In this document: positions 32,630 through 59,156 of the stretch, one piece after another
Layout of the letters: each line of letters opens with the position of its first letter
Position numbering within the stretch: position 1 is the stretch's first letter
From: an uncultured Pseudomonadota bacterium
GTDB lineage: Bacteria; Myxococcota_A; UBA796; SXON01
DNA: 64,000 bases
Assembly: GCA_903891165.1 (NCBI GenBank)
Contig: CAITDR010000289.1
Coordinates: 2,278-66,277, forward strand
Direction: 5' to 3'
Notes under the pieces: generated by a model
What the model saw: only the letters and a program-made list of their open reading frames with translations
Told to the model about the DNA's origin: nothing
Database searches by the model: none
Position numbers and translations under genes: made by a program

Positions 32630-35293
<2,664 letters not shown>

Positions 35294-43565: not shown

Positions 43566-43611
43566 AGGATTCCCGTCGCCGCGCTTAACCGGTGGCCGGG
43601 CTTTGCGGCGC

Positions 43612-44949
43612 TCAGATCCGTTCCACCCGCATTTTCATCCCTTTAATCCTACCATCTTCCAGGCCGCGCTGAGCCTTCCCCACCACCGCATGGGCCACGG
43701 CGAGGTAGGTCACCCGCTCCTGCACCTCGATCTTGCCCACGTCGCTCGACGGCAGGCCGCCCGCCTCGCCGGTGAGCGCCCCCAATACGTCGCCGGGTCG
43801 CAATTTATCCCGTCGTCCCGCCGAAATTTTCAGGCAGGCCCAGCGTGGGAGTGCCCCCTGGTGAAGGGCGGGCAGCAGGCCCAGGTCCAGCTTGGGCAGC
43901 TCCATCCCCGCGAGGCGATTGAGTTTTCCGCCGCGTCCACCTGCGGAAATTGCCAGACCCGGCTGCCCGGCGCGCCCGGTGCGGCCGATCCGGTGCAGGT
44001 AGAGATCGGGGGAGTGGGGCAGCTCCAGGTTCACCACCAGCTCCAGCCCGCTGATGTCCAGTCCCCGTGCCGCCACATCCGTCGCCACCAGGATACGGGC
44101 GACGCTGCTCCGAAAGCGAGCCAGTTCCTGGTCTCTCACCCACTGCTCCATGTCGCCCTGGAGGCAGCCCACCGGCAGACCCGCCTGGGCCAGCTCCTCT
44201 GCGAGTGCGGAGGCACTGGCCTTGAAGTTGCAGAAGATCAGGGCGGAGGCCGGGTTCAGGTGCAGGAGCAGGGGAATCAGCCCGATGGCGGCGGGATCCC
44301 AGGCCCAGGCCTGGATCTCCGGGGGCGGCTCGGGCGCCACCACACGCACCGGGGTGTTCAGGATGGTCTCGGACAGCCGCTCAATGTCGGGCGGAAAGGT
44401 GGCCGAAAACAGCGCGGTCTGGCGGGGGGAGGGGAGCTGCTCCAGGATCTTGCGCAGGTCTTCGGCAAAACCCATCTCCAGCATCCGATCCGCCTCGTCG
44501 AGCACCAGCACCTTGAGCATTCTCAGCGGCACGTTGTTGCGATCCAGGTGGTCCAACAAACGCCCTGGGGTGGCGACGAGGATGTGGGCCCCCTCTTCCA
44601 GGGCGCGGGTCTGGCCGAAGATGGGCTCTCCTCCGGCCAGGGGCAGGACCCTGAGGCCCGGAAAAGAACGTCCTACCTTGCGGATCTCGCGGGTAACCTG
44701 AGCCACCAGCTCGCGGGTGGGACCCAGAATCAGCGCTTGTGGACTACGTCTTGACACGTCAAGATTTTGAAGCAAAGGCAGCGCAAAAGCGAGGGTTTTT
44801 CCGGATCCCGTACGTGCCTGGCCTACCAGGTCTTCGCCACGCAAAAGCACGGGCAGCGCCAGCTCCTGAATGGGGGTGGCTTCGGTAAAACCCAGCTCCG
44901 TACATACCTGCGTAAGAGCGGGAAGCAGGCCGAGGGAGGAGAAATTCAT
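43612..44949 (-). CDS. dbpA: DEAD-box ATP-dependent RNA helicase, DbpA type
   Basis: ATPIQ, ARTGSGKT, DEADRMLEMGF, SAT and HRIGRTGRAG motifs. The C-terminal DbpA RNA-binding domain reads ISAGRRDKLRPGDVLGALTGEAGGLPSSDVGKIEV. Confidence 0.85.
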   Translation of the reverse strand: MNFSSLGLLPALTQVCTELGFTEATPIQELALPVLLRGEDLVGQARTGSGKTLAFALPLLQNLDVSRRSPQALILGPTRELVAQVTREIRKVGRSFPGLRVLPLAGGEPIFGQTRALEEGAHILVATPGRLLDHLDRNNVPLRMLKVLVLDEADRMLEMGFAEDLRKILEQLPSPRQTALFSATFPPDIERLSETILNTPVRVVAPEPPPEIQAWAWDPAAIGLIPLLLHLNPASALIFCNFKASASALAEELAQAGLPVGCLQGDMEQWVRDQELARFRSSVARILVATDVAARGLDISGLELVVNLELPHSPDLYLHRIGRTGRAGQPGLAISAGGRGGKLNRLAGMELPKLDLGLLPALHQGALPRWACLKISAGRRDKLRPGDVLGALTGEAGGLPSSDVGKIEVQERVTYLAVAHAVVGKAQRGLEDGRIKGMKMRVERI

Positions 44950-44983
44950 CCCAGGCTCTAACCCGTCCGGGCGATTGTGCCCC

Positions 44984-45454
44984 CTAGGGCCCGCCGGGCA
45001 GCCAGCGCGGCGACATCGAAAAGAGCAGCCGTGCCGGGCGGGTCAGTGGCAATCGCTCCACCTCAAACAGCGCAAAACCAGCGCGCTCCAGGGGAAAAGC
45101 CGACATCGGTGCCCCTAGGAGCCGCGCCCCAAAGGCGCCGAGGGTGGGCTCGTGTCCTACCAGGAGGGGATCGGGATGATCGGCGGCGATCCACTGGAAT
45201 GCCTCCGGGTCCCCCATCGCCAGCACCTCCGTGCAGATTCGGGGTACCGTAGGGAAGCGGTGGGCAACCATCTCCGCGGTCTGGTCGGCGCGAACCAGGG
45301 GGGAAGAGAGGATAATGCCGGGTTTCCACGGAATTCGAACGAGGTGGTCCAGCAGACGATCCAGCTCGTAGCGCCCGCGCGGGGTCAGGCGGCGGTGGTA
45401 GTCGGTGGGGGCGCGATCTTCGGCGATCCCATGGCGGAGGAGGGCGACAAACAT
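44984..45454 (-). CDS. sixA: Phosphohistidine phosphatase SixA
   Basis: MFVALLRHGIAEDR...LTPRGR...SSPLVRADQTAE is the histidine-phosphatase RHG motif at SixA size (156 aa). Confidence 0.8.
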   Translation of the reverse strand: MFVALLRHGIAEDRAPTDYHRRLTPRGRYELDRLLDHLVRIPWKPGIILSSPLVRADQTAEMVAHRFPTVPRICTEVLAMGDPEAFQWIAADHPDPLLVGHEPTLGAFGARLLGAPMSAFPLERAGFALFEVERLPLTRPARLLFSMSPRWLPGGP

Positions 45455-45467
45455 AAAGAGCTCTATC

Positions 45468-46118
45468 TCAATTCGGTGGCCGGAGCACCACCCCAGCGGC
45501 CTTTGCGGCGTGGGCCACGGCGGTGATCAGGTTGTGATCATCGGCGTCGTCGGCCACTTTCCAGGCCGAAAATATTGCCTCGGCCCCTCCACCGACCCGC
45601 GCCAACGAAAGCCAGGCCAGGACCCGGCTGCGGGGACTGGCAGCTTCGGCCAGGGCACGCTGGGCGGCCTGTCGGGCAGGTTCCGGCTCCCCCAAGGCGG
45701 CCCAAGCAGAGGATTGACGCGTCAAGAGGTCAATCCGTTCCTCGGGGGTCTTGGAGGATAGTTCCTCTTCTGACATCCCCAGGAGCTTGCGATCGTCTTC
45801 GGCTTGACTGGCCGCCAGCTGCAGGGCGGCGAGGCTGCCGGCGATGCGGTTGTGCAGCTCCCGCAGGGCCGCGAGTCCGTCGGTATCGCCCCCCTGTTTG
45901 GCAAGGCGGATGGCGTCCAGCACGGCGGTGCGCGCCTCCTCCAGCCGGTTCCGGCTCATCAAGGCTTGTGCTTTCCAGGCGAATAACCGCGCGACCAACA
46001 GGGGGCGTTCCTGACGCAGGGCCGGGCTGTCCACCTGCTCCACCCCTGCCACCACCTCTTCTACATTCCCTTCCCGCAAGGCGGAAAAGACCAAGGCCGC
46101 CCCCTCGTCCGGGCTCAA
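45468..46118 (-). CDS. Hypothetical helical-repeat (TPR-like) protein
   Basis: TTG start in a TTGA overlap with the upstream gene stop; the true start is uncertain. Ala/Leu-rich helical repeats with no catalytic motif. Confidence 0.45.
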   Translation of the reverse strand: MSPDEGAALVFSALREGNVEEVVAGVEQVDSPALRQERPLLVARLFAWKAQALMSRNRLEEARTAVLDAIRLAKQGGDTDGLAALRELHNRIAGSLAALQLAASQAEDDRKLLGMSEEELSSKTPEERIDLLTRQSSAWAALGEPEPARQAAQRALAEAASPRSRVLAWLSLARVGGGAEAIFSAWKVADDADDHNLITAVAHAAKAAGVVLRPPN

Positions 46119-47239
46119 CCCTTGCCCCGCGCGAAGAGCGCGCAGCGCGCCGCCTCCTCTTCGATGGATAGCGGTACGATGATCTCGCCCGGCCCCAGAT
46201 CATTCTGTTGGGCGAGCCACTCCAGGGCCAAGCCCAACACCGTGAAGTGCAACAACACCGGCTCCTGTGAACCCGAATTCATCACGATATTCAACGGATT
46301 TCCGCCCGCAAGCACCACCAACTGCCGCCCGCCCAGGGCGTAGCGTACCACCTGCGGCCCTACCTCATCTACTGCATCTGCTTCCCGACGCAATGCCTCG
46401 ACCGCGATCTCGTCGTTGTGGTGGCCCGCGTTCAGCAGGATGGCACCATCTCGGGCCTGCCGCAGCAGCTCTAACGAAAGTGCATCCCGACTGCCCGTAG
46501 CGGTGACCAGTACCTGGCTCTGCGCGACGGCCTCTTCAATTGTGGGCGTCTCAAAGCCATCATACTGGGCGATCAACCTGCGAATGGGCGAGCTATCTAC
46601 CACCGAGACGCAGGCGCCGTTGGCCCGTGCGCAGGCCGCCACACCGGCCCCCACCGGCCCATAGCCGACGACGGCCACCGGGCGTCCGGCGAGGTGTTTC
46701 CCGGTCAGCGCCGTAAAGCTGGCCCACAGGCCGTCGCCCACCCCATGCCTGCACTCAATCGCAGGCTTCAACCGGCCACTATCGATGTTCACCACCGGAA
46801 AAGTCAGCGGCAGCGAACGCAGCTTACTTACGCCGGAGCGGCTGATTTCCACCCCCCCGCGCAGCGGTCGGTTGCTGCGCAACAGGGCCGCCCCCAAAGC
46901 GAAGCCGACATCCGCAAAAAGATCGGGTTGCACCGATAAGGTTCCCGCGATTCCATCGTTGATGGAGCGGCCGGAGTACACGGTCAGCCCCAGATCACGC
47001 AGATAGTCTACCACCCCCGGATCCGTGGTTGCCGGATTGGCCGCTGAGATCACCCATTTTCCGCCCCCCAGCACCAGCTCGCGGATCAGCGCAGCGGTCA
47101 GCGTGGTCAGGTGCAGGTGCAGCCCCACGGTGAGCCCCTCCCAGGGCCGATCCACGGCAAAGCGATTGCCTGCTTGCGGCAGAATCGGAAAAAAAGTCTG
47201 GATCCGCCCCAATTCCTGGAGCACCCGCTCGGTGCCCAT
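46115..47239 (-). CDS. S-adenosylhomocysteine-hydrolase-like NAD-binding protein, divergent (374 aa)
   Basis: Trimmed to ATG 47239, which overlaps the MBL gene stop by one nucleotide (TGATG). GLTVGLHLHLTTLTAALIRELVLGGGKWVISAANPATTDPGVV parallels the AdoHcyase substrate domain. PVAVVGYGPVGAGVA is the Rossmann motif. The K-x-x-F-D-N-x-Y-G-C-R catalytic block is degenerate (RLKPAIECRHG). Confidence 0.65.
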   Translation of the reverse strand: MGTERVLQELGRIQTFFPILPQAGNRFAVDRPWEGLTVGLHLHLTTLTAALIRELVLGGGKWVISAANPATTDPGVVDYLRDLGLTVYSGRSINDGIAGTLSVQPDLFADVGFALGAALLRSNRPLRGGVEISRSGVSKLRSLPLTFPVVNIDSGRLKPAIECRHGVGDGLWASFTALTGKHLAGRPVAVVGYGPVGAGVAACARANGACVSVVDSSPIRRLIAQYDGFETPTIEEAVAQSQVLVTATGSRDALSLELLRQARDGAILLNAGHHNDEIAVEALRREADAVDEVGPQVVRYALGGRQLVVLAGGNPLNIVMNSGSQEPVLLHFTVLGLALEWLAQQNDLGPGEIIVPLSIEEEAARCALFARGKG

Positions 47240-48105
47240 CAGGCGACCATTCCCGCCAGGTGCGACTGGCCGGCCACCGAGCCATAGCGCCCCTTCTCGT
47301 CGCGGGTGACCCGCGCCAGCGCCCACTCCGGGTCATGGGTGAAGAAGATCCGGCCATTCTGCGGAATCAGGTAGTCCAGCAGTGCCCGCTTTTCGTCCAC
47401 CAGCAGCTCGGGGAAGCGGTCGTAGCCCATGGACACCGAAGTGTGGACCCAGGCGCGTCCGGGCACCAGATCGGAGCCAAAAACAATCGGTCCGTCTTTC
47501 CCAGGGATCTCCGCCAGCAACAGGCCGGGTGTATGCCCATCGGATAGATGAAAGCGGTATTCACCTCCGAGCGCCCGGGAAGCATCGCCGTCCAGCAGCT
47601 CCAGACGCCCCGACTCTTCCAGATATTGGTTCAGAAGCGGAATAAAGCTGGCGCGGTCGCGGGGGTGTGGCTGCCGGGCCCGATCCCAGGCGTCGCGACT
47701 GACAACAAAAGTTGCATTGGGGAAAAGAAGGCTTGGTGTCTGCCCTTCCTGCCAGGCGGAGAGGACACCGCCCGCGTGATCAAAATGCAGGTGCGACAGG
47801 ACCACCACCGAGATGTCCGCGTCGGTCAAACCCACCGCGGCGAGGGAGTCCAACAGGATGTGCTGCTCCTCGGTAATGCCGTAGCGGTCGCGATACATGG
47901 CGTCAAAAAAGGCGCCAATACCTGCCTCAAAGAGGATCCAGCGCTTGCCGTCCTGCACCAGCAGGCAGCGACAGGCCAGCTCGATCCGGTTGCGTTCATC
48001 GGGCGTGGCCCAGCGCTCCCAGAGCGCCTTGGGAGCATTTCCGAACATCGCCCCGCCGTCCAGTTTCTGGCGGTTGCCCTCAATGGACCATACACGTCGT
48101 TCCAT
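47239..48105 (-). CDS. MBL-fold metallo-hydrolase, lactonase-like
   Basis: [15 protein letters not shown] and [13 protein letters not shown] (HxHxDH zinc motif, identical in its core to the AiiA-type HLHFDHAGG). GHTPG and FTHD are also present. Confidence 0.85.
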
Positions 48106-48192
48106 CCCTCGATTCTATCTCATCCGGTGCGGCTTGTCCCTTTCTGCACTCCGGGCTTGAAAGGAGACGGCCTCCGGGCCATCTTGAGCAGG

Positions 48193-49437
48193 ATGCTCCT
48201 GGCTCTGCTCAACCTTGCTCTGGCTGCGCCCCCGAATGTGCTCCTGGTGGTGGTGGACGCCCTGCGTGCCGATCGGGTCTTGGGGGCGGAGGCGGAAAAA
48301 AATACGCCGAACCTACAACGTTTGATGCGACGTTCGGTGGTCTTTCCGCACGCCGTCAGCTCGGCCGCGTGGACGGTGCCGGCGATGGCGTCGCTGTTCA
48401 CCTCGCTGGATCCCCAGGTACATCGTACCCTGCGCTACAATTCAAATGATCGTCTGCCCGACGATAGCCTCGCTCCGCAGCTGCCCACCCTGGCGGAGAC
48501 TTTTGCGACCGGTGGCTACGAGACCGCGGCGCTGCTGAAGGCGGTAGTGTTGGCGAAAAACCGTGGTTTTGCGCAGGGGTTTTCGTCATGGCGGGTGGTA
48601 GAGGGGGACATGGCAGATCGCCAGAGTGCCAGCCAGTTGACCGATGCCGCGCTGGAGTGGGTCACGACGGAGCACGATAGAGAGCGTCCCTTTTTCCTCT
48701 ATCTTCACTACATGGATCCCCACTCGAACTACCTCGCACCCGAGCCATGGTATTCCGAGGCTCGGGGCGACTACAAGGGGCCCGTCACCGGGGTCTACAA
48801 CCAGATCCACGGGAGCTATCTGGAAAAGGGAGTGATTCCCACCCGAGCCGATCTGGGCCAACTTCGCCGCTACTACGACGCCGAAGTCCGGTACTGGGAC
48901 AGTGAGTTTGGTAGGTTGATAAAAGACCTTGCGGTGATGGGCGTGGATGCAAACACCATTGTTGTCGTGACGGCGGACCACGGCGAAGCGTTGTACGACC
49001 ACGGCAACTTCTTCGAAAGTAGTGTGTACCAGGAGAATATCGGCGTGCCGCTGGTGGTGAAGGTGCCCGGGGTGGCGGCGGCTCAGCGGAATGAGCTGGT
49101 ACAATTGCTGGATATCGCTCCCACCTTGGCGGATCTGGTCGGCCTTCCGGCGGCTGCGGCTTGGCAGGGGCGTAGTCTGGTGCCCGCCTTCCGCGGAGAA
49201 AGTACGGAACCACGAGCTGCGTACGCCGAATATGGGAATATACGGACGGTAATTGCTCCCGACGGACTGAAGCTGATCGAGGGTGACGGTGCGGCGAAGA
49301 TCTTTCAGATTTTCGAGGACCCTGGCGAACTTCGCGACAGGATGGGCGGTGGCTGGAAGGAGCTGCAGCGGCTCCGCGCCCTGTTGGCCGAGCGGGTGGC
49401 AGGGTGGGAGCCGCAGCGGCGGGGGCTGGGCCTGTAA
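48193..49437 (+). CDS. Secreted sulfatase-fold (alkaline-phosphatase superfamily) enzyme S1 with Thr in place of the formylglycine Cys/Ser
   Basis: ORF 47548..49437 trimmed to ATG 48193. An alternative TTG at 48184 gives the leader MSRMLLALLNLALA. Motifs: LLVVVDALRAD, SSAAWTVPAMASLFTS, YLHYMDPHSNY, TIVVVTADHGEA, LLDIAPTLADLVG. Confidence 0.8.
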   Translation: MLLALLNLALAAPPNVLLVVVDALRADRVLGAEAEKNTPNLQRLMRRSVVFPHAVSSAAWTVPAMASLFTSLDPQVHRTLRYNSNDRLPDDSLAPQLPTLAETFATGGYETAALLKAVVLAKNRGFAQGFSSWRVVEGDMADRQSASQLTDAALEWVTTEHDRERPFFLYLHYMDPHSNYLAPEPWYSEARGDYKGPVTGVYNQIHGSYLEKGVIPTRADLGQLRRYYDAEVRYWDSEFGRLIKDLAVMGVDANTIVVVTADHGEALYDHGNFFESSVYQENIGVPLVVKVPGVAAAQRNELVQLLDIAPTLADLVGLPAAAAWQGRSLVPAFRGESTEPRAAYAEYGNIRTVIAPDGLKLIEGDGAAKIFQIFEDPGELRDRMGGGWKELQRLRALLAERVAGWEPQRRGLGL

Positions 49438-49453
49438 GGCCGTCGCGTCCCGC

Positions 49454-49500
49454 CTGTGCATGAACTGTGCATGGCGCTCTGCACAGCAAGGTTCTGTGCG
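49454..49500 (+). promoter_or_regulatory. Phased direct repeats (CTGTGCA-like heptamers) upstream of the TPR gene
   Basis: CTGTGCATG at 49454-49462 and 49465-49473 (11-bp phasing), CTCTGCA at 49477-49483 and CTGTGCG at 49494-49500. All lie in the 154-nt gap between S1 and the TPR gene. Function unknown. Confidence 0.3.
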
Positions 49501-49590
49501 GGGAGGAGCGGATGGGCCTGCCGGACTCCGCAGAATTGTACAGCTTCCTCATTTTTTTGGGATTGGCATGAGTCTTGCATGCACGAAGGC

Positions 49591-50445
49591 ATGGAAACGC
49601 CCATCTTGTCCTGTTCCTCCGATGGTTGGACGACCGCTCTGCTGGACGACGTGCGCAGCCTGATGGATGCGACCCAGCTTTGGGAGGCCGAGTTACTCTG
49701 CCGTCAGGCCATCGTAGAGATTGAAGGCTGCTTTGGGGAGCAGACTTTGGCGGGAATTGAGGCGCGGATGTTGCTGGCAGAGCTTCGTTTTCAGGACGGT
49801 GATCTGTCCGAGGCACAGGCGCTGCTTCAGCAGGCCACCGGACTGCTGACCCGTCTCCCCGACCAGGGGCCTGTGGTGTGCAGGCTACGTGTGCAGGCCC
49901 TGGGTCGCCAGGGCCTGATCTGCGTGCTGGCGGGGAATCCGGAAGAGGGGCTGCCCTTGCTGCGTCAAGCCCTGCTTCGGGCCCGTCGGCAGCTGGGACC
50001 GACGGATGCGGAGGTTCGCTGCTGTCTCAATGCACTCGCTTTTGCGTCACGACGGATGGGGCGCCTGGGCCTTGCGGCCTCCCAGCTGCGGGAGGCGCTG
50101 CGCTGTGCGACGGGGGCCCCCCCGGCGCAGGTGGCGCTGCTGCACCGGAACCTCGCCTGCCTGGAGCTGGAGCGCGGTCGTCCTGAGCGCGGCGAGCCTC
50201 ATGCGCGTGCGGCGATTGTCCTTCTGCAACATTCAGAAAGCGCTACCGCTTCCGTCCAGCTTCTACTGGCTCGTCTGGTCCGGCGTCGCGATGCAGCAGA
50301 GGCCGAGCGGCTGCTGCGGGAGGCACTTCCGGCCCTGGAAGAGGCCGAGCGGCAGGAAGCCTGCCGTCTGATGGCCGATCTGTTGGCCCAGCAGGAGGAT
50401 CTGGCGCAGGCCGGGGCCAACCGGTGGCGCGCCGAGGCGGCATGA
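49591..50445 (+). CDS. TPR-repeat protein, cytoplasmic (about 285 aa)
   Basis: ORF 49456..50445. I prefer ATG 49591 (or 49579), because the first ~40 codons use AT-ending codons atypical for this genome. Repeated A/L-rich TPR-like helices (EAQALLQQATGLL, GLPLLRQALLRARRQLG, LREALRCATG, LLREALPALEEA). Confidence 0.6.
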   Translation: METPILSCSSDGWTTALLDDVRSLMDATQLWEAELLCRQAIVEIEGCFGEQTLAGIEARMLLAELRFQDGDLSEAQALLQQATGLLTRLPDQGPVVCRLRVQALGRQGLICVLAGNPEEGLPLLRQALLRARRQLGPTDAEVRCCLNALAFASRRMGRLGLAASQLREALRCATGAPPAQVALLHRNLACLELERGRPERGEPHARAAIVLLQHSESATASVQLLLARLVRRRDAAEAERLLREALPALEEAERQEACRLMADLLAQQEDLAQAGANRWRAEAA

Positions 50446-50481
50446 GACCTTTTATGACCCAGACAGGATAGGGGGGAAGGG

Positions 50482-52692
50482 ATGTCCAAGCGCCTCTTCC
50501 TCCTCCTCCCCCTGGCCGCACTGCTGTGGTGCTGGCCGCTTGGCTGGTCCCTTTGGCCGGACGAGGTTTTTACGGCCGGGGTGGTGGTGCGTGACATCCG
50601 GGGGATGATCCAAGGGGCCGCCAATGATCGGCATCCTCCCTTGTACTATCTCTTTGTCAGCCTGTTTGGCTTCCTGGGGAAATCGGATGCGGCGCTGAGG
50701 CTGCCTTCGGCGGTGGCGCTGCTGAGTATGTTGGCGGTGGGGCTGGGATCGGTACGACGCTGGGGGACCGAGGGCACTGCCTGGGTCATGGCCTTGGTCC
50801 TTGTTTTTTCGCCGGTGTGTTTCCTTTTTGCGCATACGGCGCGTATGTATGCCCTCTTGGCGGCCTTCGGAGCGATGTTGCTCGCCGGCTGTCTGGGCGT
50901 CGCAAAAGGGAGCCGTTGGGGGCTCCTTTTCCTGCTGGTAGGCGGTCTGGGAAGCCTGTACACCCACTATGCGGGGGCGGGGGGAGTCGCTGGCGCTCTT
51001 GCAGGCTCCTTTTTGGTCGCTGTCCAGCTGAAAAGGCGCGATCTTATTGGAGGAACGCTGATAGTGGGGATGGCAATCGGGCTGTGTTTTGCCCCCTGGG
51101 CGCTGGGACCGCTGCAGCAGCAGCTGGCCGAGAAGTCCAACCCCACTCAGCGTAGCTGGACGGTGCTTCTCTATCTGCTTTGGGGCGCCGATCCTCGCAT
51201 TTTTGTAGGGAGCTGGGGGATGCTGTGCCTCGCGCTGGTAGGCTGCTACCACAGCCGGGCGCAGCGCTGGCTCTGGCCCTGGTGGGGGGCGATGTTGCTT
51301 TTTCCAGTCCTTGCTTCATCCTCCGAACCTGCCCAGAACCCCAGGAATTATATCGGTTTTCTGCCGATGTCTGCCTACCTTGTCGCCGAAGGAATCGCCT
51401 ATCTACGGCTCAAAAAAGGCTTGCGCGGCGCCTGGGTGGATTATGCTCCGGTCATGTTGCTGCTCTGGCCCCTTTTGGAATTGAGCCGTCAGGAGACCAA
51501 CCCCCAGGACGTGGGCAATGGTCACGACTATCGTCGGGAAGCGCAACTATTGGATCGCCTGATACCGGCGGATGCAAATCTTCGCTTTGAGCCTTCCTAT
51601 GTGGTCAATCAGTTCTCCCGCTATGCGCCGGCTCTGGCGCTGCGCTCCGGTGGGGGAGAGCAGTGGTTGGGCAAGGCCACCGGAGCCCCTCGGGGAAATT
51701 GTACCTTCCTTTCTGCTTTTCGGGTGGCGCTGATCGTCCCCGAAGAGGCCTGCGACGAGGCGGTGGCGGTGCTGCGGAAGGAGGCCGAGCAAAGCGACTA
51801 TAGTCCCTTCCTCGTGGAGATCGGCAGGCGGGCCCTGGAGGCGAAAAATCTGGAAGAAGCTGAATCTTTTGCTGCACGGGCCGTGCAGGGGCCGCAGCGG
51901 CATTTTGCCGCCTGGGATCTGGTGGCCGATGTGGCCTTTGCGCAGGGGGACCTGGAAGGGGCGTTGAAGGCAACGGATCAGGCGCTGGGGCTGGCCCGGG
52001 GCTGGGGCTTTGGCGCCAACCAGATCGCCGGTCTTTGGGATCAGCGGGCCCGCATCTTGACGCGTCAAGAGAATGCGGCGGCAGCTCAGCAGGCCACCGC
52101 GGCGGGAGCCTGTGCACGAAGTCGCCACCCGGCTTGGCTCTGCGGTGGGGTTTTTTCCTGGTTATCGGCCGAGGAATCGGCAAGGGAAGAGGGCGGGGCG
52201 CCTGCCGAAAAACCGGCGGCCGGGGGAGGCCGAGGGGACTGGAAAGATCTGGAAGTTCGCCCGCTCCCACAGCGCTGGGACTTTGATGAGGTCGGCCTGT
52301 CCAAGGGCTGGGTGCGGACCGGCTTTGCGGAAAACACGGGTGGGGAACTGGTTGTCGGGGACTCGAAGGCGGAGATTGACGTGGCCTGCACACCGATCCT
52401 CGCGGTCCCCGGTCCGATGAAGATCCAGCTGCGCTGGACCCCCGACATCCTGAGCCTGGACCCGCCCACCTGGTCGGTGGTGGAGCTGCGCCCGGTACAA
52501 CAGGATGGCAAGCCCTTGCCGGATGTGGAGGTTGCCCGCTACTTTGCCACACGCCAGGGCCAACCGGCTCGTGAGGAGGAAGGCCTGTGGACGCCCCCGG
52601 CCGGGGTCAGCTACGCACGGCTCTGTGTCAAGACCGGGGGAGCCTCGGCGGGTAGCACCAAGGTGGACTGGCTCTCCCTGACCGCGGGTTGA
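50482..52692 (+). CDS. GT-C glycosyltransferase, family 39/ArnT-PMT-like, with C-terminal TPR and beta-rich domains (736 aa)
   Basis: GGGGAAGGG Shine-Dalgarno before ATG. The first loop has WPDEVFTA (acidic DE motif) and RHPPLYYLF. About 11 TM segments are followed by a TPR-like region (EAKNLEEAESFAARAV...GDLEGALKATDQALGLA) and a ~130-aa beta-rich C-terminal domain. Confidence 0.75.
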   Translation: MSKRLFLLLPLAALLWCWPLGWSLWPDEVFTAGVVVRDIRGMIQGAANDRHPPLYYLFVSLFGFLGKSDAALRLPSAVALLSMLAVGLGSVRRWGTEGTAWVMALVLVFSPVCFLFAHTARMYALLAAFGAMLLAGCLGVAKGSRWGLLFLLVGGLGSLYTHYAGAGGVAGALAGSFLVAVQLKRRDLIGGTLIVGMAIGLCFAPWALGPLQQQLAEKSNPTQRSWTVLLYLLWGADPRIFVGSWGMLCLALVGCYHSRAQRWLWPWWGAMLLFPVLASSSEPAQNPRNYIGFLPMSAYLVAEGIAYLRLKKGLRGAWVDYAPVMLLLWPLLELSRQETNPQDVGNGHDYRREAQLLDRLIPADANLRFEPSYVVNQFSRYAPALALRSGGGEQWLGKATGAPRGNCTFLSAFRVALIVPEEACDEAVAVLRKEAEQSDYSPFLVEIGRRALEAKNLEEAESFAARAVQGPQRHFAAWDLVADVAFAQGDLEGALKATDQALGLARGWGFGANQIAGLWDQRARILTRQENAAAAQQATAAGACARSRHPAWLCGGVFSWLSAEESAREEGGAPAEKPAAGGGRGDWKDLEVRPLPQRWDFDEVGLSKGWVRTGFAENTGGELVVGDSKAEIDVACTPILAVPGPMKIQLRWTPDILSLDPPTWSVVELRPVQQDGKPLPDVEVARYFATRQGQPAREEEGLWTPPAGVSYARLCVKTGGASAGSTKVDWLSLTAG

Positions 52693-52790
52693 GGGGAAGA
52701 TTTTCGACGCTGAGGTATTTGCTTACACACCGTGAAAGATGAGGGCTGGGCATGGGTCCTCCTTTCCGCTACAAGAACGATGAGGTCTGT

Positions 52791-54194
52791 ATGCTCCGCT
52801 CTCTGTCTCTGCTCGGTCTGGCCCTGGCTGCGGTGGCCAGCGTTTTGATGCTCAGTCCTGCCCGCGCGGCGGCGCCGGCCCCCAATGTCATCCTGATACT
52901 CGTGGATGCGATGCGGGCGGATAAGCTCGGTCCCTACGGCTATACTGCGCGGGCGACCACCCCGAACCTGAGCCGCTTTGCCAGCCGTGGTGTTGTATTC
53001 GAAAATACAATCAGCCAGGCCGGCTGGACGGTCCCCTCAGTGGCCAGTCTGTTCACCGGGGTGGATCCCCAGGCCCACCGGGTGCTGCGCTACCAGCAGA
53101 CCAGCCGGGTGGAGATGGATGCGCTCTCGCTGGGCCACCAGACCATTGCCGAGCAGTTCAAAAATGCGGGCTACAGCACGGCTGCAATTATGAAGTCCAT
53201 CGTGGTGGATTCTGGTCGCGGCTTCTCGCAGGGTTTTGATACCTTCAACGTGATAAATCCCAAGCAGAACCAGGCGGATGGGGACTCCGGCCGCGAGCTG
53301 ACGGATGCAGCGGTGGCGTGGTTGGAGCAACAGAAGACCGCTGGAAAGCCCTTCTTTGGCTACCTCCACTACATGGATACCCACTCTCCCTACAAGGCGC
53401 CGGAGCCCTACTACAGCAAATATCGGGCTCCAGGCTACGCAGGTCCGGTCTCGGGCGCCCATATGCAGATCGAAAATGACTACAAGAAGCCGGGGGTGGT
53501 GCCTGCCGCGGCGGACATCCAGCAGGCCCTAGCTCTGTACGACTCGGAAGTGGAGTACTGGGATGCCCAGTTTGGTCGGTTGATGCAGGTATTGGTCAGC
53601 ACCGGCTTGGACGCAAACACCATCGTGGTGGTGACGGCCGACCATGGGGAAGCCTTCTGGGAGCATGGAACCAATGTGTTTCATGAGCACCTGTATCAAG
53701 AAAATATCCACATTCCATTTATTGTAAAGGCGCCGGGTGTGAAGCCGGGGCGTCTGTCTCACTGGACCCAGAGTATCGACATTGCCCCGACACTCGCCGA
53801 TCTGGCCGGAGTGCCCAAGGGGGCGCATTGGCAGGGCCGTTCGCAGGCGGCGGTGTTGAAGGGCACCGGGCCTGCAACAGTATTGCCGGTCTATGCAGAA
53901 TATTCGGAGCGCCGGACGATCATTGAGCCCTCGGGCATGAAGCTGTTGTTGGGGGATCCCTCCGGCCCGATGCTCTTCGATCTGAAGAAGGATCCGGGCG
54001 AGAAGACCAACCTCGCGGCCGCTCAGCCCGACGTGGTGAATCGCCTGAAGGGTCTTTTGGAGGTCCGTTCTTCCGAAGGAAAGGCGCTTGCAGCATCTTT
54101 CCCGATGGAGGAGAAAAACGAGATGAGCCCCGAGCAGGTGCAGCAGCTCTGCGCGCTGGGCTACCTCTCCGGGGCGGTCTGCGAAGGAAAGTGA
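52791..54194 (+). CDS. Secreted sulfatase-fold enzyme S2, paralogue of S1, Thr in place of the formylglycine Cys/Ser
   Basis: Trimmed to ATG 52791. Signal peptide MLRSLSLLGLALAAVASVLMLSPARAAA. Motifs: ILILVDAMRAD, SQAGWTVPSVASLFTG, YLHYMDTHSPY, TIVVVTADHGEA, SIDIAPTLADLAG. Confidence 0.85.
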   Translation: MLRSLSLLGLALAAVASVLMLSPARAAAPAPNVILILVDAMRADKLGPYGYTARATTPNLSRFASRGVVFENTISQAGWTVPSVASLFTGVDPQAHRVLRYQQTSRVEMDALSLGHQTIAEQFKNAGYSTAAIMKSIVVDSGRGFSQGFDTFNVINPKQNQADGDSGRELTDAAVAWLEQQKTAGKPFFGYLHYMDTHSPYKAPEPYYSKYRAPGYAGPVSGAHMQIENDYKKPGVVPAAADIQQALALYDSEVEYWDAQFGRLMQVLVSTGLDANTIVVVTADHGEAFWEHGTNVFHEHLYQENIHIPFIVKAPGVKPGRLSHWTQSIDIAPTLADLAGVPKGAHWQGRSQAAVLKGTGPATVLPVYAEYSERRTIIEPSGMKLLLGDPSGPMLFDLKKDPGEKTNLAAAQPDVVNRLKGLLEVRSSEGKALAASFPMEEKNEMSPEQVQQLCALGYLSGAVCEGK

Positions 54195-54198
54195 GTCG

Positions 54199-55323
54199 AT
54201 GAGCTGGTTTTTGGGCTGGCGGAGCTGGTTGCTGGCCCTGGTGCTATTGGCCACCAATTGGGGGCTTGGGAGGCTGCACGCCCTGGTGGAGTGGTGGGCG
54301 GAGCGGCTGTCGGCTCCCCTCGGGCTCGGGCTGGCCCGACTGGTGTCGGTGGTGGACCTCAGCGTCGCAGAAGTGCTGATCTACCTCGGGGTTTTGGGGC
54401 TGGTACCGCTGCTGGTCCACCAACGCCGCTCGCTACCCCGCCTGCTTCGTGTGGTGATCAGCATGGCGCTCTGGGGTGCCGTCATTTTTGTGAATCTGTG
54501 GGGAATGCAGTACCGGCGGCCACCGATGTTGGAGCGTCTGGGCTGGGAGGATCCCGGTCCCACCACCGCTGAGGAGCTGAGCAGGCTTGGGAAAATCGCT
54601 GCGTTGCAAGCGGGGACTGCGTACAAGCAGGCGCTGGGCACCGACGACCTGGGCCAGGCCACTACGGGGATGCCGATGGCAATGCTCCATCCGGCGGTGG
54701 AGCAGGGCTACGCGGTGGTGGCGACCGAGGCCCCGCAGTTAGGTGCGAGTTTTGCCTGGCCGCGGCCCTCTCCGAAGCCCCTGGCCTCCACCTTTGCCCT
54801 GGTTCGTTTCGGTTTATTAGGTTTCTACTTCCCCTTTACGGGAGAAGCCAGCCTGACCATTGATGCGCCCGGCCAGCAGGTGCCCCATGCGGCGGCGCAT
54901 GAGATGGCCCACCAGCGTGGGGTTGCAAGGGAGGACGAGGCGAATTTTATGGGCTTCTGGGTGTGCATCCGGTCGGACGACGCCTATGTGCGCTACTCGG
55001 GGTGGCTTTTCCTGTGGAAGCAGGTCTACTATGAGCTGAGTGAGCAGCGGGAGGATGCCCTGGCGCGGACTCTGGTTCGGCAGGTGGGGCCAGGGCCGCT
55101 GCGCGACATGGAAGAGGCCTGGAAGTGGTGGCACGCCGGGGAGGGCAGGATGCGGGAGCTGGGACAGGCGGTGAATGATACCTACCTGAAGGTGAATGGT
55201 CAGGATGGTATTGTCAGCTACAATCAGAGCCTGCGGCTGATGTTGGCCATGGGACGTCGGGGCGGCGCGGAGTGGGCCATCGGCGATGACCCCCAACCTG
55301 CCGACCCCCTACCCGAAAATTGA
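54199..55323 (+). CDS. DUF3810-like membrane protein with an HExxH zinc-protease-like motif
   Basis: Starts 4 nt after S2. N-terminal TM segments, then AAHEMAHQRGVAREDEANFMGFWVC, which matches my recollection of the DUF3810 signature (HExxHQ...E.EANF). Confidence 0.7.
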   Translation: MSWFLGWRSWLLALVLLATNWGLGRLHALVEWWAERLSAPLGLGLARLVSVVDLSVAEVLIYLGVLGLVPLLVHQRRSLPRLLRVVISMALWGAVIFVNLWGMQYRRPPMLERLGWEDPGPTTAEELSRLGKIAALQAGTAYKQALGTDDLGQATTGMPMAMLHPAVEQGYAVVATEAPQLGASFAWPRPSPKPLASTFALVRFGLLGFYFPFTGEASLTIDAPGQQVPHAAAHEMAHQRGVAREDEANFMGFWVCIRSDDAYVRYSGWLFLWKQVYYELSEQREDALARTLVRQVGPGPLRDMEEAWKWWHAGEGRMRELGQAVNDTYLKVNGQDGIVSYNQSLRLMLAMGRRGGAEWAIGDDPQPADPLPEN

Positions 55324-55347
55324 GTTAGGGCGGCGCGGGGAGGGGGG

Positions 55348-56961
55348 ATGGAGACAACCACAATCCGTTGGCTGCGTCGGGGGGCCGAGCTGCTGGCTCT
55401 GGTGCTGGGGCTCTGGCAGCTGAGTGTGGTGGGTCAGGCCATGGCCCGGCGTTGGGACTACAATTTTGACATCGAGTGGATGGAGGGAGGAACCCTCCTT
55501 TCAGCGATGCGTGTCCTTGAAGGACAACCCATCCACGGGGCACCAGACACCGAGTACATCCCCTTTATCTACCCGCCCCTCTATGCCTGGCTGGTGGGCC
55601 TTTTGGGGCATCTGTTCCCGATGGGCTACGCTCTGGGAAGAGGCACATCCATTGCCTGTTTTTCGTTGGCATGCTTGGCGCTCCTCTATGGTGCACGCCA
55701 GGCAAAGGCCTCCTGGCCCGTGGCCATTGCATTGATGGGTGTTTTTGCAGGAACCTATGATGAAGCTGGGACTTTCTACGATCTGATCCGGGTGGACTCG
55801 CTGACGATCGCGCTGTTGGGCTGGGCGGTGGTGCTGGGCGCTGGCGCAAAGCCTTGGCAGCAGGTGGTCTCGGGCCTGTTATTGGCCAGTGCCTTTATGG
55901 CAAAGCACAATGCCGCTGCATTTGGCCTGCCGATGATCGTGGGGATCTGGAGGCTTCAGGGGCGGGCGGCGGCTCTGCGCTTCGGGCTGGCCTCGGTATT
56001 GCCGGCGCTGGGCTTTGTGGGCGTGGAGCAGATCGCGACGGGCGGCCATTTTCTCTCTTGGATCCTGGGGGTTCCTGCAGAGCATGGGGTGGTGGGGGAG
56101 CGGTTGATCTCGGGTCTGGGCCTGAAATTCGAGCCACGTCTGCGCCTGCCCACCCGGGGTGCCCAGCTGGAGTTCTGGGACGCGCTGCCGGTGACCACCA
56201 CCGTGGCGCTGCTGGCTCCGGCCTGGTTTCGTCGTCACGCACAGGCACTTTACTGGAGTGGTGTTTCGGCGATGGGGGTGGTGATCTGCTCGCTCATGCG
56301 GGGGCATGTGGGGGGCTTCATCAACGTGTTGATCCCCATGTACTGGATCCTGTGTCTGTGGCCGGTCCTTCAAGCGCAAGTGTTAGAGGAACGCTGGGGA
56401 AAGCCGGAAGCGGGGCGGATTTTCAGCAAGGTACCTGCCTGGCCGGTGCGGGTCCTGCTGCCGCTCTGTCTCGCGGGGCAGCTCTGGGTGGGCCACAAAG
56501 ATCTGAAGCGCTACATTCCCACCGAGGCCAACCGGAAGGCGGCGGCTGCTTTTATCGAGGAGATTCGCGCACTTCCGGATCCGGTCCTCTCCCCCTACGC
56601 ACCCTATGCCATGGTGCAGGCAGGCAAAGATCCTACCTTTTCCTTGATCTGCCTCTGGGACATCGACTACAAGGGGGGGCCCTATCGCCCCTTTGTGCGC
56701 AAGGTGGAGCGTAGCCTTGCCCAGCAGAAGTGGGCGGTGATCCTCGCTCCAAACGATAAGCTGGGCTACGGCCAGAAAAAATACTACAAAAAGGACCATA
56801 TGGTCAAAAATACGCCGCCGGAGACGATTGTGGGCTGGCGGGTACGGCTGAACCAGGTCTGGGTGCCTATCGCCGGTGAAGCGATGGGCGAAGATGCCGC
56901 CGAGGAGAGTTTGGAGGAGGAGGCAGCGGGTTCCGCCGAACAGGGGGCGGCTGCCGACTGA
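55348..56961 (+). CDS. Polytopic membrane protein, GT-C-like (tentative), 537 aa
   Basis: GGAGG Shine-Dalgarno before ATG. First loop is DYNFDIEWMEGGTL...IPFIYPPLYAW. About 10-11 TM segments with a C-terminal soluble region and an acidic tail. The GT-C assignment rests on architecture only. Confidence 0.55.
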   Translation: METTTIRWLRRGAELLALVLGLWQLSVVGQAMARRWDYNFDIEWMEGGTLLSAMRVLEGQPIHGAPDTEYIPFIYPPLYAWLVGLLGHLFPMGYALGRGTSIACFSLACLALLYGARQAKASWPVAIALMGVFAGTYDEAGTFYDLIRVDSLTIALLGWAVVLGAGAKPWQQVVSGLLLASAFMAKHNAAAFGLPMIVGIWRLQGRAAALRFGLASVLPALGFVGVEQIATGGHFLSWILGVPAEHGVVGERLISGLGLKFEPRLRLPTRGAQLEFWDALPVTTTVALLAPAWFRRHAQALYWSGVSAMGVVICSLMRGHVGGFINVLIPMYWILCLWPVLQAQVLEERWGKPEAGRIFSKVPAWPVRVLLPLCLAGQLWVGHKDLKRYIPTEANRKAAAAFIEEIRALPDPVLSPYAPYAMVQAGKDPTFSLICLWDIDYKGGPYRPFVRKVERSLAQQKWAVILAPNDKLGYGQKKYYKKDHMVKNTPPETIVGWRVRLNQVWVPIAGEAMGEDAAEESLEEEAAGSAEQGAAAD

Positions 56962-56966
56962 GCGTG

Positions 56967-58211
56967 CTACTTCAGCTTGCGGAGGAGCCGCTCCAATTCA
57001 GGCGCAAAATCTGTGTCCTTCCTCCATTCCAGGGCCTCCACCTGGCCGCGCAGGCGGCTGCGCAACAGGCCGTGAAAGCCCTCAAAATCGGTCAGTCCCT
57101 CATGACCCAACAGGCGGCTCAGCGATAGCAGGCTCGCACTGTCGGGCTGGGGGAACACCAGAAGGCGCGCATCGGGATGGAGGGTTCCGGTGAGCCACTC
57201 CACGAGGTGATCCTGCGCGTAGATGGCGCTGGGACGGCCCCAGGCGACTTCAAAATGATCGAGGAGATCCTTCCCGACGATCACCTCCCAAAGGGCCGCC
57301 TCCGCGCCCGCACCCCAGCGCCGCGGCGCTTGGAGGGCCAGACCACGATCCAGGCCCCCACAGGGCAGATCGGGGCAGCCCTCCCGCCAGCGTAGTGCGA
57401 CCTGGGCCACGAGTGCCTGCCCGACAGAGCGGTCATTCCCCGCATCTGCAGAGAGTTTTTGCTGGGCATCCTGCAGCAGGTAGTCCACCGGATCGCCCTG
57501 TACGCCCAGCGTCTCTCGCAGCTGCTCCCGCTCCTTCCGCCAGCTTGCCTGCTCGGCATCGCTGTCCGCGATCACCTGCCGCAGCGCCCGCAGGCTGGCT
57601 TCTCTCAGGGCCTTGGAACCTTCTTCGCCTTTTCCCTCCTCTTTTTTGTTTTGTATCCTGGAATACAAAGTGATCCCGGCAGGGCTTTGCACCAACCTGC
57701 TGTAGCGGGGATCGTCCAAAAGACGCTGGAGCGGCTGAAGATCGATGGCCGGGCCATCCATCCAGCCTAAGAGCACCTGCCGCTCCGACATGGTCAACAG
57801 GCCGTCGGCGTCGGGGCCACCCAGGGCATCCAGGATGGGTCGCGCCCCCTCGGGGGGTACGGCGGTGGGCGGGGAAAGGGGGGCCAGAAGCCCGAGATCG
57901 GCGATGGGCAAGGTCTGGCCCCCACGCTGCTCCAGCTCCAACAGGCGCGCACCCCGCAGCAGAGGAACAGTGATCGTCCCTGCATATTCCTCCTCCACTT
58001 CCCAAGCGGGCAGGCTTGCTGCCAGCCACGCGGCGATAGGCGCGGGCAGGCTTGCGGCGGGCTCGGGGCGGCGTACATGGCGCAGCAGTGGATCTTCGGC
58101 GATGATCCAGGTGATCAGTGCGTCCGGATCCTCGGGCTGAGGCGGGGGAGGCGGCGGTGCCACCGGTGCGCTGGGCACCCGCGCCACCCAACATGCAAGC
58201 AGCAGGAGCAT
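56967..58211 (-). CDS. Hypothetical protein with a minimal lipobox leader and a poly-Pro segment (414 aa)
   Basis: ORF trimmed to ATG 58211. MLLLLACWVARVPSAPVAPPPPPPQPEDP... No recognisable domain. Confidence 0.5.
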   Translation of the reverse strand: MLLLLACWVARVPSAPVAPPPPPPQPEDPDALITWIIAEDPLLRHVRRPEPAASLPAPIAAWLAASLPAWEVEEEYAGTITVPLLRGARLLELEQRGGQTLPIADLGLLAPLSPPTAVPPEGARPILDALGGPDADGLLTMSERQVLLGWMDGPAIDLQPLQRLLDDPRYSRLVQSPAGITLYSRIQNKKEEGKGEEGSKALREASLRALRQVIADSDAEQASWRKEREQLRETLGVQGDPVDYLLQDAQQKLSADAGNDRSVGQALVAQVALRWREGCPDLPCGGLDRGLALQAPRRWGAGAEAALWEVIVGKDLLDHFEVAWGRPSAIYAQDHLVEWLTGTLHPDARLLVFPQPDSASLLSLSRLLGHEGLTDFEGFHGLLRSRLRGQVEALEWRKDTDFAPELERLLRKLK

Positions 58212-58261
58212 TTTTGCGAAGCTATCCGATTTCGACTGGTTAGGCTGCGGCGGAGGATGAG

Positions 58262-59156
58262 ATGCTCCAAGCGGTTGGTAAGCTGCGTGCGGTGATCCAG
58301 GGCCCGGCTCAGCCGGTGGCCACCCTGGTCCTGATCCATGGAATCGGCCTGGGACCTTGGTTCTGGGAGCCCTGGATGGAGAAACTCTCCGAGCGCTTTC
58401 GGGTGCTGGCGCTGAGCCTGCCCGGTCACGGGGAGCCGCCGGAGGACGCGGGCCTGGAGGAGGTGATCGCAGGGGTTGAATCGGTCCTTTCCACACTTCC
58501 CGAGCCGCCGATCCTGGTGGGGCACTCCATGGGTGCCCTGGTGGCGCAGATCCTGGCCACCCGCCATCCGCTGCGGGGGCTGATCCTGATGAGCCCCCTG
58601 CCACCGGGCCAGATTTTTGTACGGCCTGACCGAAACATGATCCGGCATAGCCTGGGGCTGCTCCCCCGCCTTCCTGCAGAAGAAGCCGCTGCACATCGGT
58701 CAGGCGGGCTACCAGGCCTTGGGCCTGAATCTTCTGTCAGAAGAGGAGGTGCAACGCTGGTATCCAAAAATCTGTCCCTGGCCCTGGGCGCTGGCCCGCG
58801 ACCTGCTGCGGCCACCGCGGGTGGATCCCATGGCGGTGCGTTGTCCGGTTTTGGTGCTGCTGGGCAAAGAGGATCGGCTGGTCCCGTGGCAGAAGGGGAG
58901 GATCCTCGGGGATCTCTACGAAGCCGTGGTCTGGCGCTACGACAACCTCGCCCACTCTCCTCCGCTGGAACCCGGTGGTCAGCGGATGCTCCAGGATCTC
59001 CTAGGCTGGGCCGAAAATCCGGTACGGCCGGAGGTGCTGGAGAGTGAAGGTTTTGGACCGGAGGAAGGGGTGGGGCACAGCCTCCGGCGGCTGCGTCGGG
59101 GCGAGGCGATGAAGCGTCGGAGTGCCTACGGGCAGAAGCAGAGTGCCCGGAAGTAG
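58262..59156 (+). pseudogene. Alpha/beta-hydrolase gene interrupted by a +1 frameshift in a C5 run (or a sequencing error)
   Basis: The frame starting at 58262 gives ATLVLIHGIGLGPWFW...ILVGHSMGALVAQ (nucleophile elbow) up to ...GLLP. Sensible sequence then continues in another frame from ~58668 (AFLQKKPLHIGQAGYQALGLNLLSEEEVQRWY...PVLVLLGKEDRLVP...NLAHSP). The switch point is CCCCC at 58663-58667. Confidence 0.65.

Follow-up and report, generated by a model that had tools for sequence, protein, structure and literature searches.

The window analysed here, a stretch of 64,000 nucleotides from contig CAITDR010000289.1 of an uncultured Pseudomonadota bacterium (Myxococcota_A in the GTDB lineage), carries a cluster of six plus-strand genes. 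Two of them, S1 (48193-49437, 414 aa) and S2 (52791-54194, 467 aa), encode sulfatase-fold enzymes of the alkaline-phosphatase superfamily in which a threonine stands where sulfatases have the residue that becomes formylglycine. The others encode a tetratricopeptide repeat (TPR) protein (49591-50445, 284 aa), a GT39/PMT_2-like membrane protein of the GT-C type (G3, 50482-52692, 736 aa), a DUF3810 membrane protein (gene 5, 54199-55323, 374 aa) and a second GT-C-fold membrane protein, which is GT87/ArnT-like (G6, 55348-56961, 537 aa). With a probability of about one half, we take the cluster to encode machinery that works on the periplasmic side on an envelope glycoconjugate, with the S enzymes carrying out phosphoester chemistry.

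In this reading the phosphoester chemistry, the physical or functional coupling of the S enzymes to the GT-C proteins and the kind of substrate are all inferred. The chemistry is suggested by the register of the threonine, by five changed sulfatase residues, by a set of residues invariant in the family and by a match to the Phosphodiest model above its cut-off. The coupling is suggested by a GT-C–S fusion in another Myxococcota contig, by the adjacency of S and GT-C genes in two further loci, by a beta-domain protein shared between S and GT-C loci, and by fusions of S domains to TPR domains and to transmembrane helices.

Active site and fold of the S enzymes

The Pfam Sulfatase model matches S1 with an E-value of 8e-42 and S2 with 1.5e-52 (144 and 179 bits; gathering cut-off 25), and both proteins are also matched by SGSH_C. 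The Phosphodiest model is likewise above threshold, with 49.7 and 53 bits against a cut-off of 23 (E = 5.4e-13 for S1). NCBIfam matches are all below threshold; arylsulfatase, choline sulfatase and PehA score best among them, and YejM, LtaS, CptA, EptA and MCR score much lower. That S1 and S2 are paralogues, as the initial annotation of this DNA had claimed, is confirmed by 48% identity over 397 residues (E = 2e-127), and the blocks it had named as common to both, VDAxRAD, YLHYMD(P/T)HS, NTIVVVTADHGEA and DIAPTLADL, are all present.

The sulfatase register was obtained from phmmer alignments to four solved sulfatases (3b5q, 5g2t, 7lha and 7oz8). In all four alignments T80 of S2, the threonine of the motif W-T-V-P-S, is placed on the Cys/Ser that becomes formylglycine, so that the threonine assigned to this position in S1 and S2 from the sequence is borne out. 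The arginine of the sulfatase motif corresponds to V84 in S2 and to a methionine in S1; in S2, the second aspartate of the metal pair is replaced by A40, the H125 equivalent by I137 and the K302 equivalent by H298. Five of the ten canonical sulfatase residues are therefore altered in the S enzymes (second Asp, formylglycine, Arg, His and Lys). Conservation is seen at the first metal Asp, at the positions that match K123 and H229 and at the D-H pair.

The S enzymes have a conserved residue pattern of their own. Among 17 diverse members, D39, R42, D44, W79, P82, K135, H193, D196, H198, D284, H285, E287, H292 and N305 are invariant, and S1 carries all residues that are invariant in the family. 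T80 is conserved in at least 90% of these members, with serine in a few, and the few Ser variants sit in a motif that lacks the arginine. When the nucleophile position was located by pattern match in 141 open reading frames (ORFs) of the family from 93 loci, threonine was found in 106 and cysteine or serine in none. D196, H198 and H292 could form a second metal site, judging from their conservation, and the motifs DxxRxD and T-x-P-x-x-x-S-x-x-T-G of the S enzymes resemble those of nucleotide pyrophosphatases/phosphodiesterases (NPP).

Structure prediction, which the initial annotation had proposed as a check, was applied to S2. The AlphaFold2 (AF2) model of S2 (pLDDT 86.8) has the sulfatase alpha/beta fold with its C-terminal subdomain, and T80 is the first residue of the helix 80-89. 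The top Foldseek matches of this model are choline sulfatase, S1-family sulfatases and phosphonate monoester hydrolases (PMH), with E-values of about 1e-26 and TM scores of 0.65-0.70. By its fold the protein belongs with the sulfatases, but its active site is not that of a sulfatase. With threonine at the nucleophile position S1 and S2 are not formylglycine sulfatases, and they probably act on phosphate esters, as far as the residues of the active site allow this to be read.

A threonine at this position is not in itself surprising, since it is found in 30 of the 59 seed sequences of Pfam PF00884; the authors of SulfAtlas have pointed out that threonine cannot give formylglycine and that such members of PF00884 cannot be counted as sulfatases (PMC5066984). 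The reading of S1 and S2 as Thr enzymes is thus supported by register, conservation and residue changes, and it is not new in principle. The less usual feature is a Thr clade that lies nearer true sulfatases than LtaS or EptA.

The two proteins differ at their ends. S2 starts with a signal peptide ending ARA|AA and closes with the tail LCALGYL. The leader of S1 is hydrophobic and very short (MLLALLNLALAA), a shortness that is conserved across the S1 clade, and its C-terminal tail is degenerate (RRGLGL).

The wider S family

At least 574 relatives of the S enzymes were confirmed in a GTDB scan, in Myxococcota, Acidobacteriota, Planctomycetota and other phyla. Source databases name the homologues ‘arylsulfatase A-like’ or ‘choline-sulfatase’. 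Proteins of this clade are called “sulfatase”, “arylsulfatase A-like” or “choline-sulfatase” in hundreds of environmental genomes, and their active site says that they are mislabelled, which matters for metagenome-based estimates of sulfur and glycan cycling.

Many family members are not free-standing. C-terminal extensions of 150-330 aa occur in about 40 of the 141 S-family ORFs, and all four of the extensions tested are TPR domains. In P0111, P0113, P0114 and ORFs of the loci L019 and L045, four to five N-terminal transmembrane helices precede the S domain. The S domain itself is closed by a C-terminal tail of the form L-x-x-L-G-Y-(V/I/L)-x in 81 of the 141 ORFs; this LGY tail is found in soluble, TPR-fused, transmembrane-fused and GT-C-fused forms alike and has decayed to GLGL in the S1 clade. 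Besides S2 (window positions about 54120-54194), examples are L011, P0072, P0106, P0107, P0111-P0114 and P0120. The tail might serve as a peptide for docking, perhaps onto TPR domains. The fusions argue that an S domain normally has a membrane or TPR partner to which it is tethered while it works, in which case the window would hold the split version of such an arrangement.

Genes of the broader family often stand in tandem arrays (L024, L034, L055, L085 and other Acidobacteriota loci). In a metagenome-assembled genome (MAG) assigned to ‘Multivoradales’ (L004, the locus of P0082, 1759-18156), three S paralogues, one of them of 921 aa, lie among GT2/GT4 glycosyltransferases and a methyltransferase; this cluster is of polysaccharide type and has no GT-C gene.

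The membrane partners and accessory proteins

G3 is matched by Pfam PMT_2 (PF13231) with an E-value of 5.3e-5 and 23.9 bits, below the cut-off of 26.1, and there is a weak match to a MalT-type TPR as well. D27-E28 follows its first transmembrane helix, within a W-S-L-W-x-D27-E28 motif that is invariant in three sequences; a TPR region covers residues of about 440-540, and a beta-rich domain forms the C-terminus. The homologues of G3 comprise about 30 full-length clusters of 750-860 aa with 32-40% identity, many of which match PF13231 and carry the NCBI name GT39.

G6 has no Pfam match. Its homologues form more than 200 clusters, some of which match PF09594 (GT87/DUF2029; about one in six) or PF13231; for one of them NCBI uses the name GT87. 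The AF2 model of G6 (pLDDT 87.4) finds ArnT (5f15) as its best Foldseek match (E = 8e-7, TM 0.51), followed by STT3, AftA, PimE, PglB, ALG3 and Pmt4. The first outer loop contains D41-x-E43-W-M-E46-G, in which D41, E43 and E46 are invariant in 22 homologues, and the C-terminus is a soluble domain. G3 and G6 are both of the GT-C type, with an acidic motif retained in the first loop of each, and come from different families. The GT-C assignment made in the initial annotation therefore stands for both polytopic proteins, by way of GT39-named homologues for G3 and of the modelled fold for G6. The family assignments are recovered by profile searches for Sulfatase, TPR and DUF3810 only, given the sub-threshold score of G3 and the absence of a Pfam match to G6.

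The TPR protein is recognised by Pfam TPR_12 (3.8e-15). A hydropathy scan found no hydrophobic segment in it, that is, neither a signal peptide nor a transmembrane segment, which places the protein probably in the cytoplasm. The periplasmic role given to it in the initial annotation is not upheld.

Gene 5 is a firm member of DUF3810 (PF12725; 5.9e-65, 220 bits against a cut-off of 28). N-terminal transmembrane helices are followed by a domain that has the HEMAH motif noted earlier, at residue 234, and EDE at 245-247, and by these motifs the protein is a candidate membrane-anchored metallopeptidase of the zincin type. Its catalytic domain may face the periplasm, to judge from the positive charge of the loop that precedes the last helix. 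The family is large, with 3,902 representative clusters, and its members almost always consist of this one domain; a search of PDB sequences returned no relative. Among 150 representatives examined for fusions only one weak Polysacc_deac_1 extension was found. This is the C-terminal extension of P0354, a rare DUF3810 relative of 725 aa that is not encoded in the window, which scores 20.4 bits, below the cut-off, and is a faint hint of cell-wall or polysaccharide substrates for DUF3810 proteins. Literature searches turned up nothing specific on DUF3810, nor on Thr-type sulfatase-like enzymes paired with GT-C proteins.

Independent links between S, GT-C and TPR proteins

One link between the two kinds of protein is an in-frame fusion of 913 aa on a Myxococcota MAG contig (L011, ORF 231-2972), in which an AftB-like GT-C membrane domain is joined to an S domain. 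The AftB match in NCBIfam (3e-8) covers residues 36-256, where a VDDAYIAYRY motif is present, together with seven hydrophobic segments. An entire S domain (APWTKPAVASIFTG, ADHGEAFLEHG and, as its tail, LEALGYGSP) occupies residues 490-913, with no signal peptide in front of it. The ORF that follows the fusion encodes a second AftB-like protein, and an AftB-like ORF also follows the S gene in L010. L005 has a full-length homologue of G3 (34% identity over 758 residues) and, at a distance of 5 kb, an S2-like gene; the two are separated by an NPP-type gene. In a sister lineage S-like and G3-like proteins were both found, the longest contigs in each case being of 52,002 bp.

A further connection runs through an uncharacterised protein of 335-365 aa with a double beta domain. 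In L001 (8548-12507), L005 (8519-12369) and L007, an S2-like gene (52-57% identity) lies directly 3' of a gene for a sigma-54 response regulator, at a distance of about 20-40 nt, and is itself directly followed by the gene for the double beta-domain protein. The same protein is the third gene product of an operon in L115 that reads G3-like, AftB-like, beta-protein (E = 8e-40). The C-terminal beta domain of G3 is weakly like it (E = 1e-4 in a single pairwise comparison). The proteins 3' of S in L001 and L005 were tested as possible relatives of DUF3810 and are not related to it, nor is the protein encoded 3' of S in L113 a relative of theirs.

The initial annotation had described a duplicated, split envelope machine. 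Its link between S and GT-C proteins gains from the L011 fusion, the S–TPR fusions and the adjacency in a few lineages; the duplication and the conserved triplet of S, accessory and GT-C genes are not upheld. A split machine is a plausible idea, strengthened by the fusions but unproven.

A possible mechanism

In the mechanism proposed here, the GT39-like G3 and the GT87/ArnT-like G6 would be two unrelated GT-C glycosyltransferases that move sugar from a polyprenyl-phosphate carrier to an acceptor, a step which family precedent would place on the periplasmic face of the inner membrane. The S enzymes would be exported and soluble, and they belong to a large branch of the sulfatase-fold alkaline-phosphatase superfamily that has a Thr nucleophile and is uncharacterised. 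T80, together with a metal site of D39, D284 and H285, would carry out a metal-assisted attack on a phosphoester that leads to a phospho-Thr intermediate, and a second site of D196, H198 and H292 is possibly involved in forming it. The phospho-Thr would then either be hydrolysed, making the enzyme a phosphodiesterase, or be passed to a sugar hydroxyl of the same glycoconjugate, making it a phosphotransferase. For the transferase route, a precedent for a soluble periplasmic enzyme is phosphoglycerol transferase II, the soluble form derived from OpgB (PMC3818809). The S enzymes would probably act at the membrane beside a GT-C and/or TPR partner, as in their fused relatives, and the HEXXH protein of the DUF3810 family and the cytoplasmic TPR protein would be co-encoded accessories.

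A more far-reaching form of this proposal is offered tentatively, and we regard it as less probable than the reading of the cluster itself. The S family would be a sulfatase scaffold with a Thr nucleophile that docks onto GT-C proteins, perhaps via TPR domains and the LGY tail, and adds or removes a phosphoester substituent on a surface glycan or glycoprotein. It would then constitute a new bipartite envelope-modification system of Myxococcota, Acidobacteriota and Planctomycetota that exists in split form, as in the window, and in fused form, as in L011. If the S–GT-C link is true, it points to an unstudied phosphoester decoration of the cell surface in Myxococcota and other phyla of soil and sediment. 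Because they are soluble, the S proteins should present few difficulties in expression, which makes them an entry point for biochemistry.

Gene context and competing explanations

The context of the homologues speaks against this proposal. The order of the six genes is kept only in L087 and L089, two close relatives with 79-96% protein identity, and the conserved triplet that had been anticipated was absent from 12 context look-ups and 80 GTDB loci. Searches with tblastn and with profile hidden Markov models (HMMs) of G3, G6, DUF3810 and TPR against the 80 GTDB loci around S-family genes returned nothing, and the G3 and G6 HMMs in particular had no match within 10 kb of S. The S homologues P0008 (59% identity), P0045 and P0060, which span 52-59% identity, have no GT-C or DUF3810 gene nearby, nor does P0048 of the S1-side clade. 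Three homologues of G6 (45-51% identity) stand alone, and the S and G6 homologues of one MAG bear distant locus tags. S, G3 and G6 homologues are mostly found in other contexts. In a metagenome scan with the G3 alignment, the contigs were mostly too short to reveal neighbours. The lack of an export signal in the TPR protein, as predicted from its hydropathy, likewise counts against a machine on the periplasmic side.

In the main rival explanation the six genes would lie side by side and have no pathway in common; S1 and S2, secreted as phosphoesterases like NPP, PafA or PhoD, would scavenge phosphate from organic esters, and the GT-C and DUF3810 proteins would have unrelated jobs in the envelope. 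Apart from the scattered homologues, it draws on the neighbours of the broader family, with NPP-type Phosphodiest genes at 15 of 84 loci and outer-membrane proteins of the CarboxypepD_reg/TonB type at 14 of 84, both of which fit nutrient scavenging and weigh on the same side, and on a PhoD gene near the S2-like gene P0008. Free enzymes of this kind would make the S–TPR fusions and the S forms with five transmembrane helices hard to explain, and the GT-C–S fusion of L011, the tight gaps of 4-36 nt in the window and the S2-like genes in operons with sigma-54 response regulators rather than Pho-type genes also speak against scavenging. We consider this explanation unlikely, though still a serious competitor to the envelope machinery proposed above.

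It is more doubtful that S1 and S2 have little or no catalytic activity and serve as binding or sensor domains that regulate or scaffold membrane partners, as has been proposed for the periplasmic domain of YejM/PbgA. Weak NCBIfam matches to LapC/YejM over the DHG region could be read in this way, and the conserved LGY tail and the frequent TPR fusions do suggest protein-protein docking. The near-invariant nucleophile and the strict conservation of the putative metal ligands, in the 17 diverse sequences and in the wider family, are on the other hand typical of active enzymes.

The cluster had also been described as a tandemly duplicated module, and a recent duplication of three genes (enzyme, accessory and GT-C protein) that have since diverged would account for the fact that each S paralogue is followed by two more genes, the last of them polytopic and GT-C-like. 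This very improbable reading is already contradicted. The profiles of G3 and G6 show no relationship (hhalign probability 1.3%), so that the two are not detectable paralogues, and the TPR and DUF3810 proteins differ in fold and family. In a neighbour-joining (NJ) tree S1 groups with P0095, P0100, P0048 and P0041, and S2 with P0001-P0008; each of these old subclades contains sequences from other lineages, and in one sample the S1-side P0048 and the S2-side P0008 lie on different contigs. Within the cluster, duplication is confined to S, and the split between S1 and S2 is ancient.

That S1 and S2 are genuine sulfate esterases with an unusual nucleophile, as the fold, the best matches to S1-family sulfatases, choline sulfatase and PMH and the database names could suggest, is hardly credible given that sampled members have no Cys/Ser at the formylglycine position (apart from the few Ser variants in a motif without Arg), that the motif Arg, the second metal Asp and the sulfate-binding His and Lys are replaced, and that threonine cannot yield formylglycine according to the SulfAtlas authors (PMC5066984).

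Gene starts, spacers and surroundings of the cluster

The six ORFs are co-directional, as described before apart from small corrections of coordinates, and all show the codon-position GC pattern of real genes. Start codons were fixed by comparison with the close-relative contigs L089 and L087 (about 82% DNA identity), and S1, the TPR gene and S2 are all taken to start with ATG. For S1, the start at 48184 of the initial annotation is a TTG that is not conserved in orthologues, the codon being TTA in L089, and ATG 48193 was taken in its place. An upstream GTG at 49456 was rejected for the TPR gene because it is not kept in orthologues, the sequence 5' of ATG 49591 being diverged throughout, and an upstream ATG at 52752 was rejected for S2 because orthologues lack it. 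The gaps from S1 to G6 are 153, 36, 98, 4 and 24 nt; the last four are as listed before, and the first had been given as 154.

Short gaps (4, 24 and 36 nt) and the lack of terminator-like sites between the six genes fit co-transcription. Scans for terminators and sigma-70 promoters gave only intragenic matches and were uninformative. A candidate sigma-54 element of the -24/-12 type, TGGCAT-N5-TTGC, lies on the plus strand at 49564-49578, with 12 nt between its end and the start codon of the TPR gene. It is a candidate by its match to the consensus alone, with one mismatch to TGGCAC-N5-TTGC; the orthologous site in L089 is perfect, and the rest of the S1–TPR spacer is 56% identical to L089. If real, the element would have S1 transcribed apart from the other five genes, and going by its position it would imply a near-leaderless TPR transcript. 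No sigma-54 activator was found among the window genes scanned. The spacer between G3 and S2 (52693-52790, plus strand) is unusually conserved: it is 89% identical to L089, and its mean column identity in three relatives is 95%, compared with 77-87% for coding regions and far above the 56% of the S1–TPR spacer. It has no Rfam match, an Rfam scan of the window having returned only a tRNA, and its conservation suggests that it may be a regulatory, leader or operator element.

The cluster is bounded by minus-strand genes on both sides, a gene for an MBL-fold protein before S1 (47239-48105) and a 575-aa ORF that converges on G6 (56967-58694), which has a Pro/Ala/Gly-rich N-terminal third and no Pfam match. 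The remaining genes of the window include TamB, a BamA-like protein, TolB, PBP1, MreB, UvrC and DbpA, and this rest is the core chromosome of an outer-membrane bacterium; the close homologues derive from MAGs labelled Myxococcota. Beyond the cluster, the window contains no further genes for glycan synthesis. The MreB homologue (32630-34117, minus strand) has an N-terminal extension of about 165 aa without a Pfam match. A block at 39857-47326 encodes an HD hydrolase, an acyltransferase-like protein, an E1 dehydrogenase, a SixA-like protein, a 216-aa protein and an AdoHcyase-like protein, and is syntenic with the contig that carries the S-family gene P0045, where S is found at the opposite end of the block and GT-C genes are absent; relative to that contig, the DbpA helicase is inserted within the block in the window.

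Comparison with known systems

S1-family sulfatases, choline sulfatase and PMH have the same fold of two subdomains as the S enzymes (TM about 0.7) and, like them, belong to PF00884; the first Asp of the metal pair, the D-H pair and the counterparts of K123 and H229 are also common to both. The S enzymes depart from them in the Thr nucleophile and in the replacement of the motif Arg, of the second Asp and of the residues that correspond to H125 and K302, and they add invariant residues of their own, R42, D44 and D196.

LtaS, EptA/MCR, OpgB/OpgE and CptA have a Thr nucleophile in a PF00884 domain, as the S enzymes do. These proteins act in the periplasm on envelope glycans or lipids. Some relatives of the S enzymes even have five N-terminal transmembrane helices and thereby resemble the LtaS/EptA type, and phosphoglycerol transferase II, which derives from OpgB, offers a precedent for a soluble periplasmic form (PMC3818809). 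S1 and S2 themselves differ in being soluble, with only a signal-type N-terminus in place of an N-terminal domain of several transmembrane helices. Their scores to the LtaS/EptA-type families (E 1e-3 to 1e-6) are far below the cut-offs, their closest structures are true sulfatases, and they bear a sulfatase-type C-terminal subdomain and the LGY tail.

NPP and the type I phosphodiesterases (PF01663) are linked to the S enzymes by the Phosphodiest match of 50-53 bits against a cut-off of 23. The Sulfatase model scores far higher, however, at 144-179 bits, and the C-terminal half of the S proteins is sulfatase-like (SGSH_C).

ArnT/PMT (GT83/GT39) and PimE (GT87) are the closest known counterparts of G3 and G6. 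G6 models as a GT-C protein with ArnT as the best match and G3 is PMT_2-like with a D-E motif, but both are below or outside Pfam thresholds, G3 has additional TPR and beta-sandwich domains, and neither gene lies in a locus of the arn type or for lipopolysaccharide (LPS). The lipid A modification regulated by PmrAB, in which ArnT and EptA take part, is made up of different protein families, nothing in the cluster points to lipid A as the target, no operon for Ara4N synthesis is nearby, and the S enzymes lack a transmembrane domain. The analogy is a functional one, in that a GT-C protein and a Thr-type enzyme decorate one envelope molecule from the periplasmic side.

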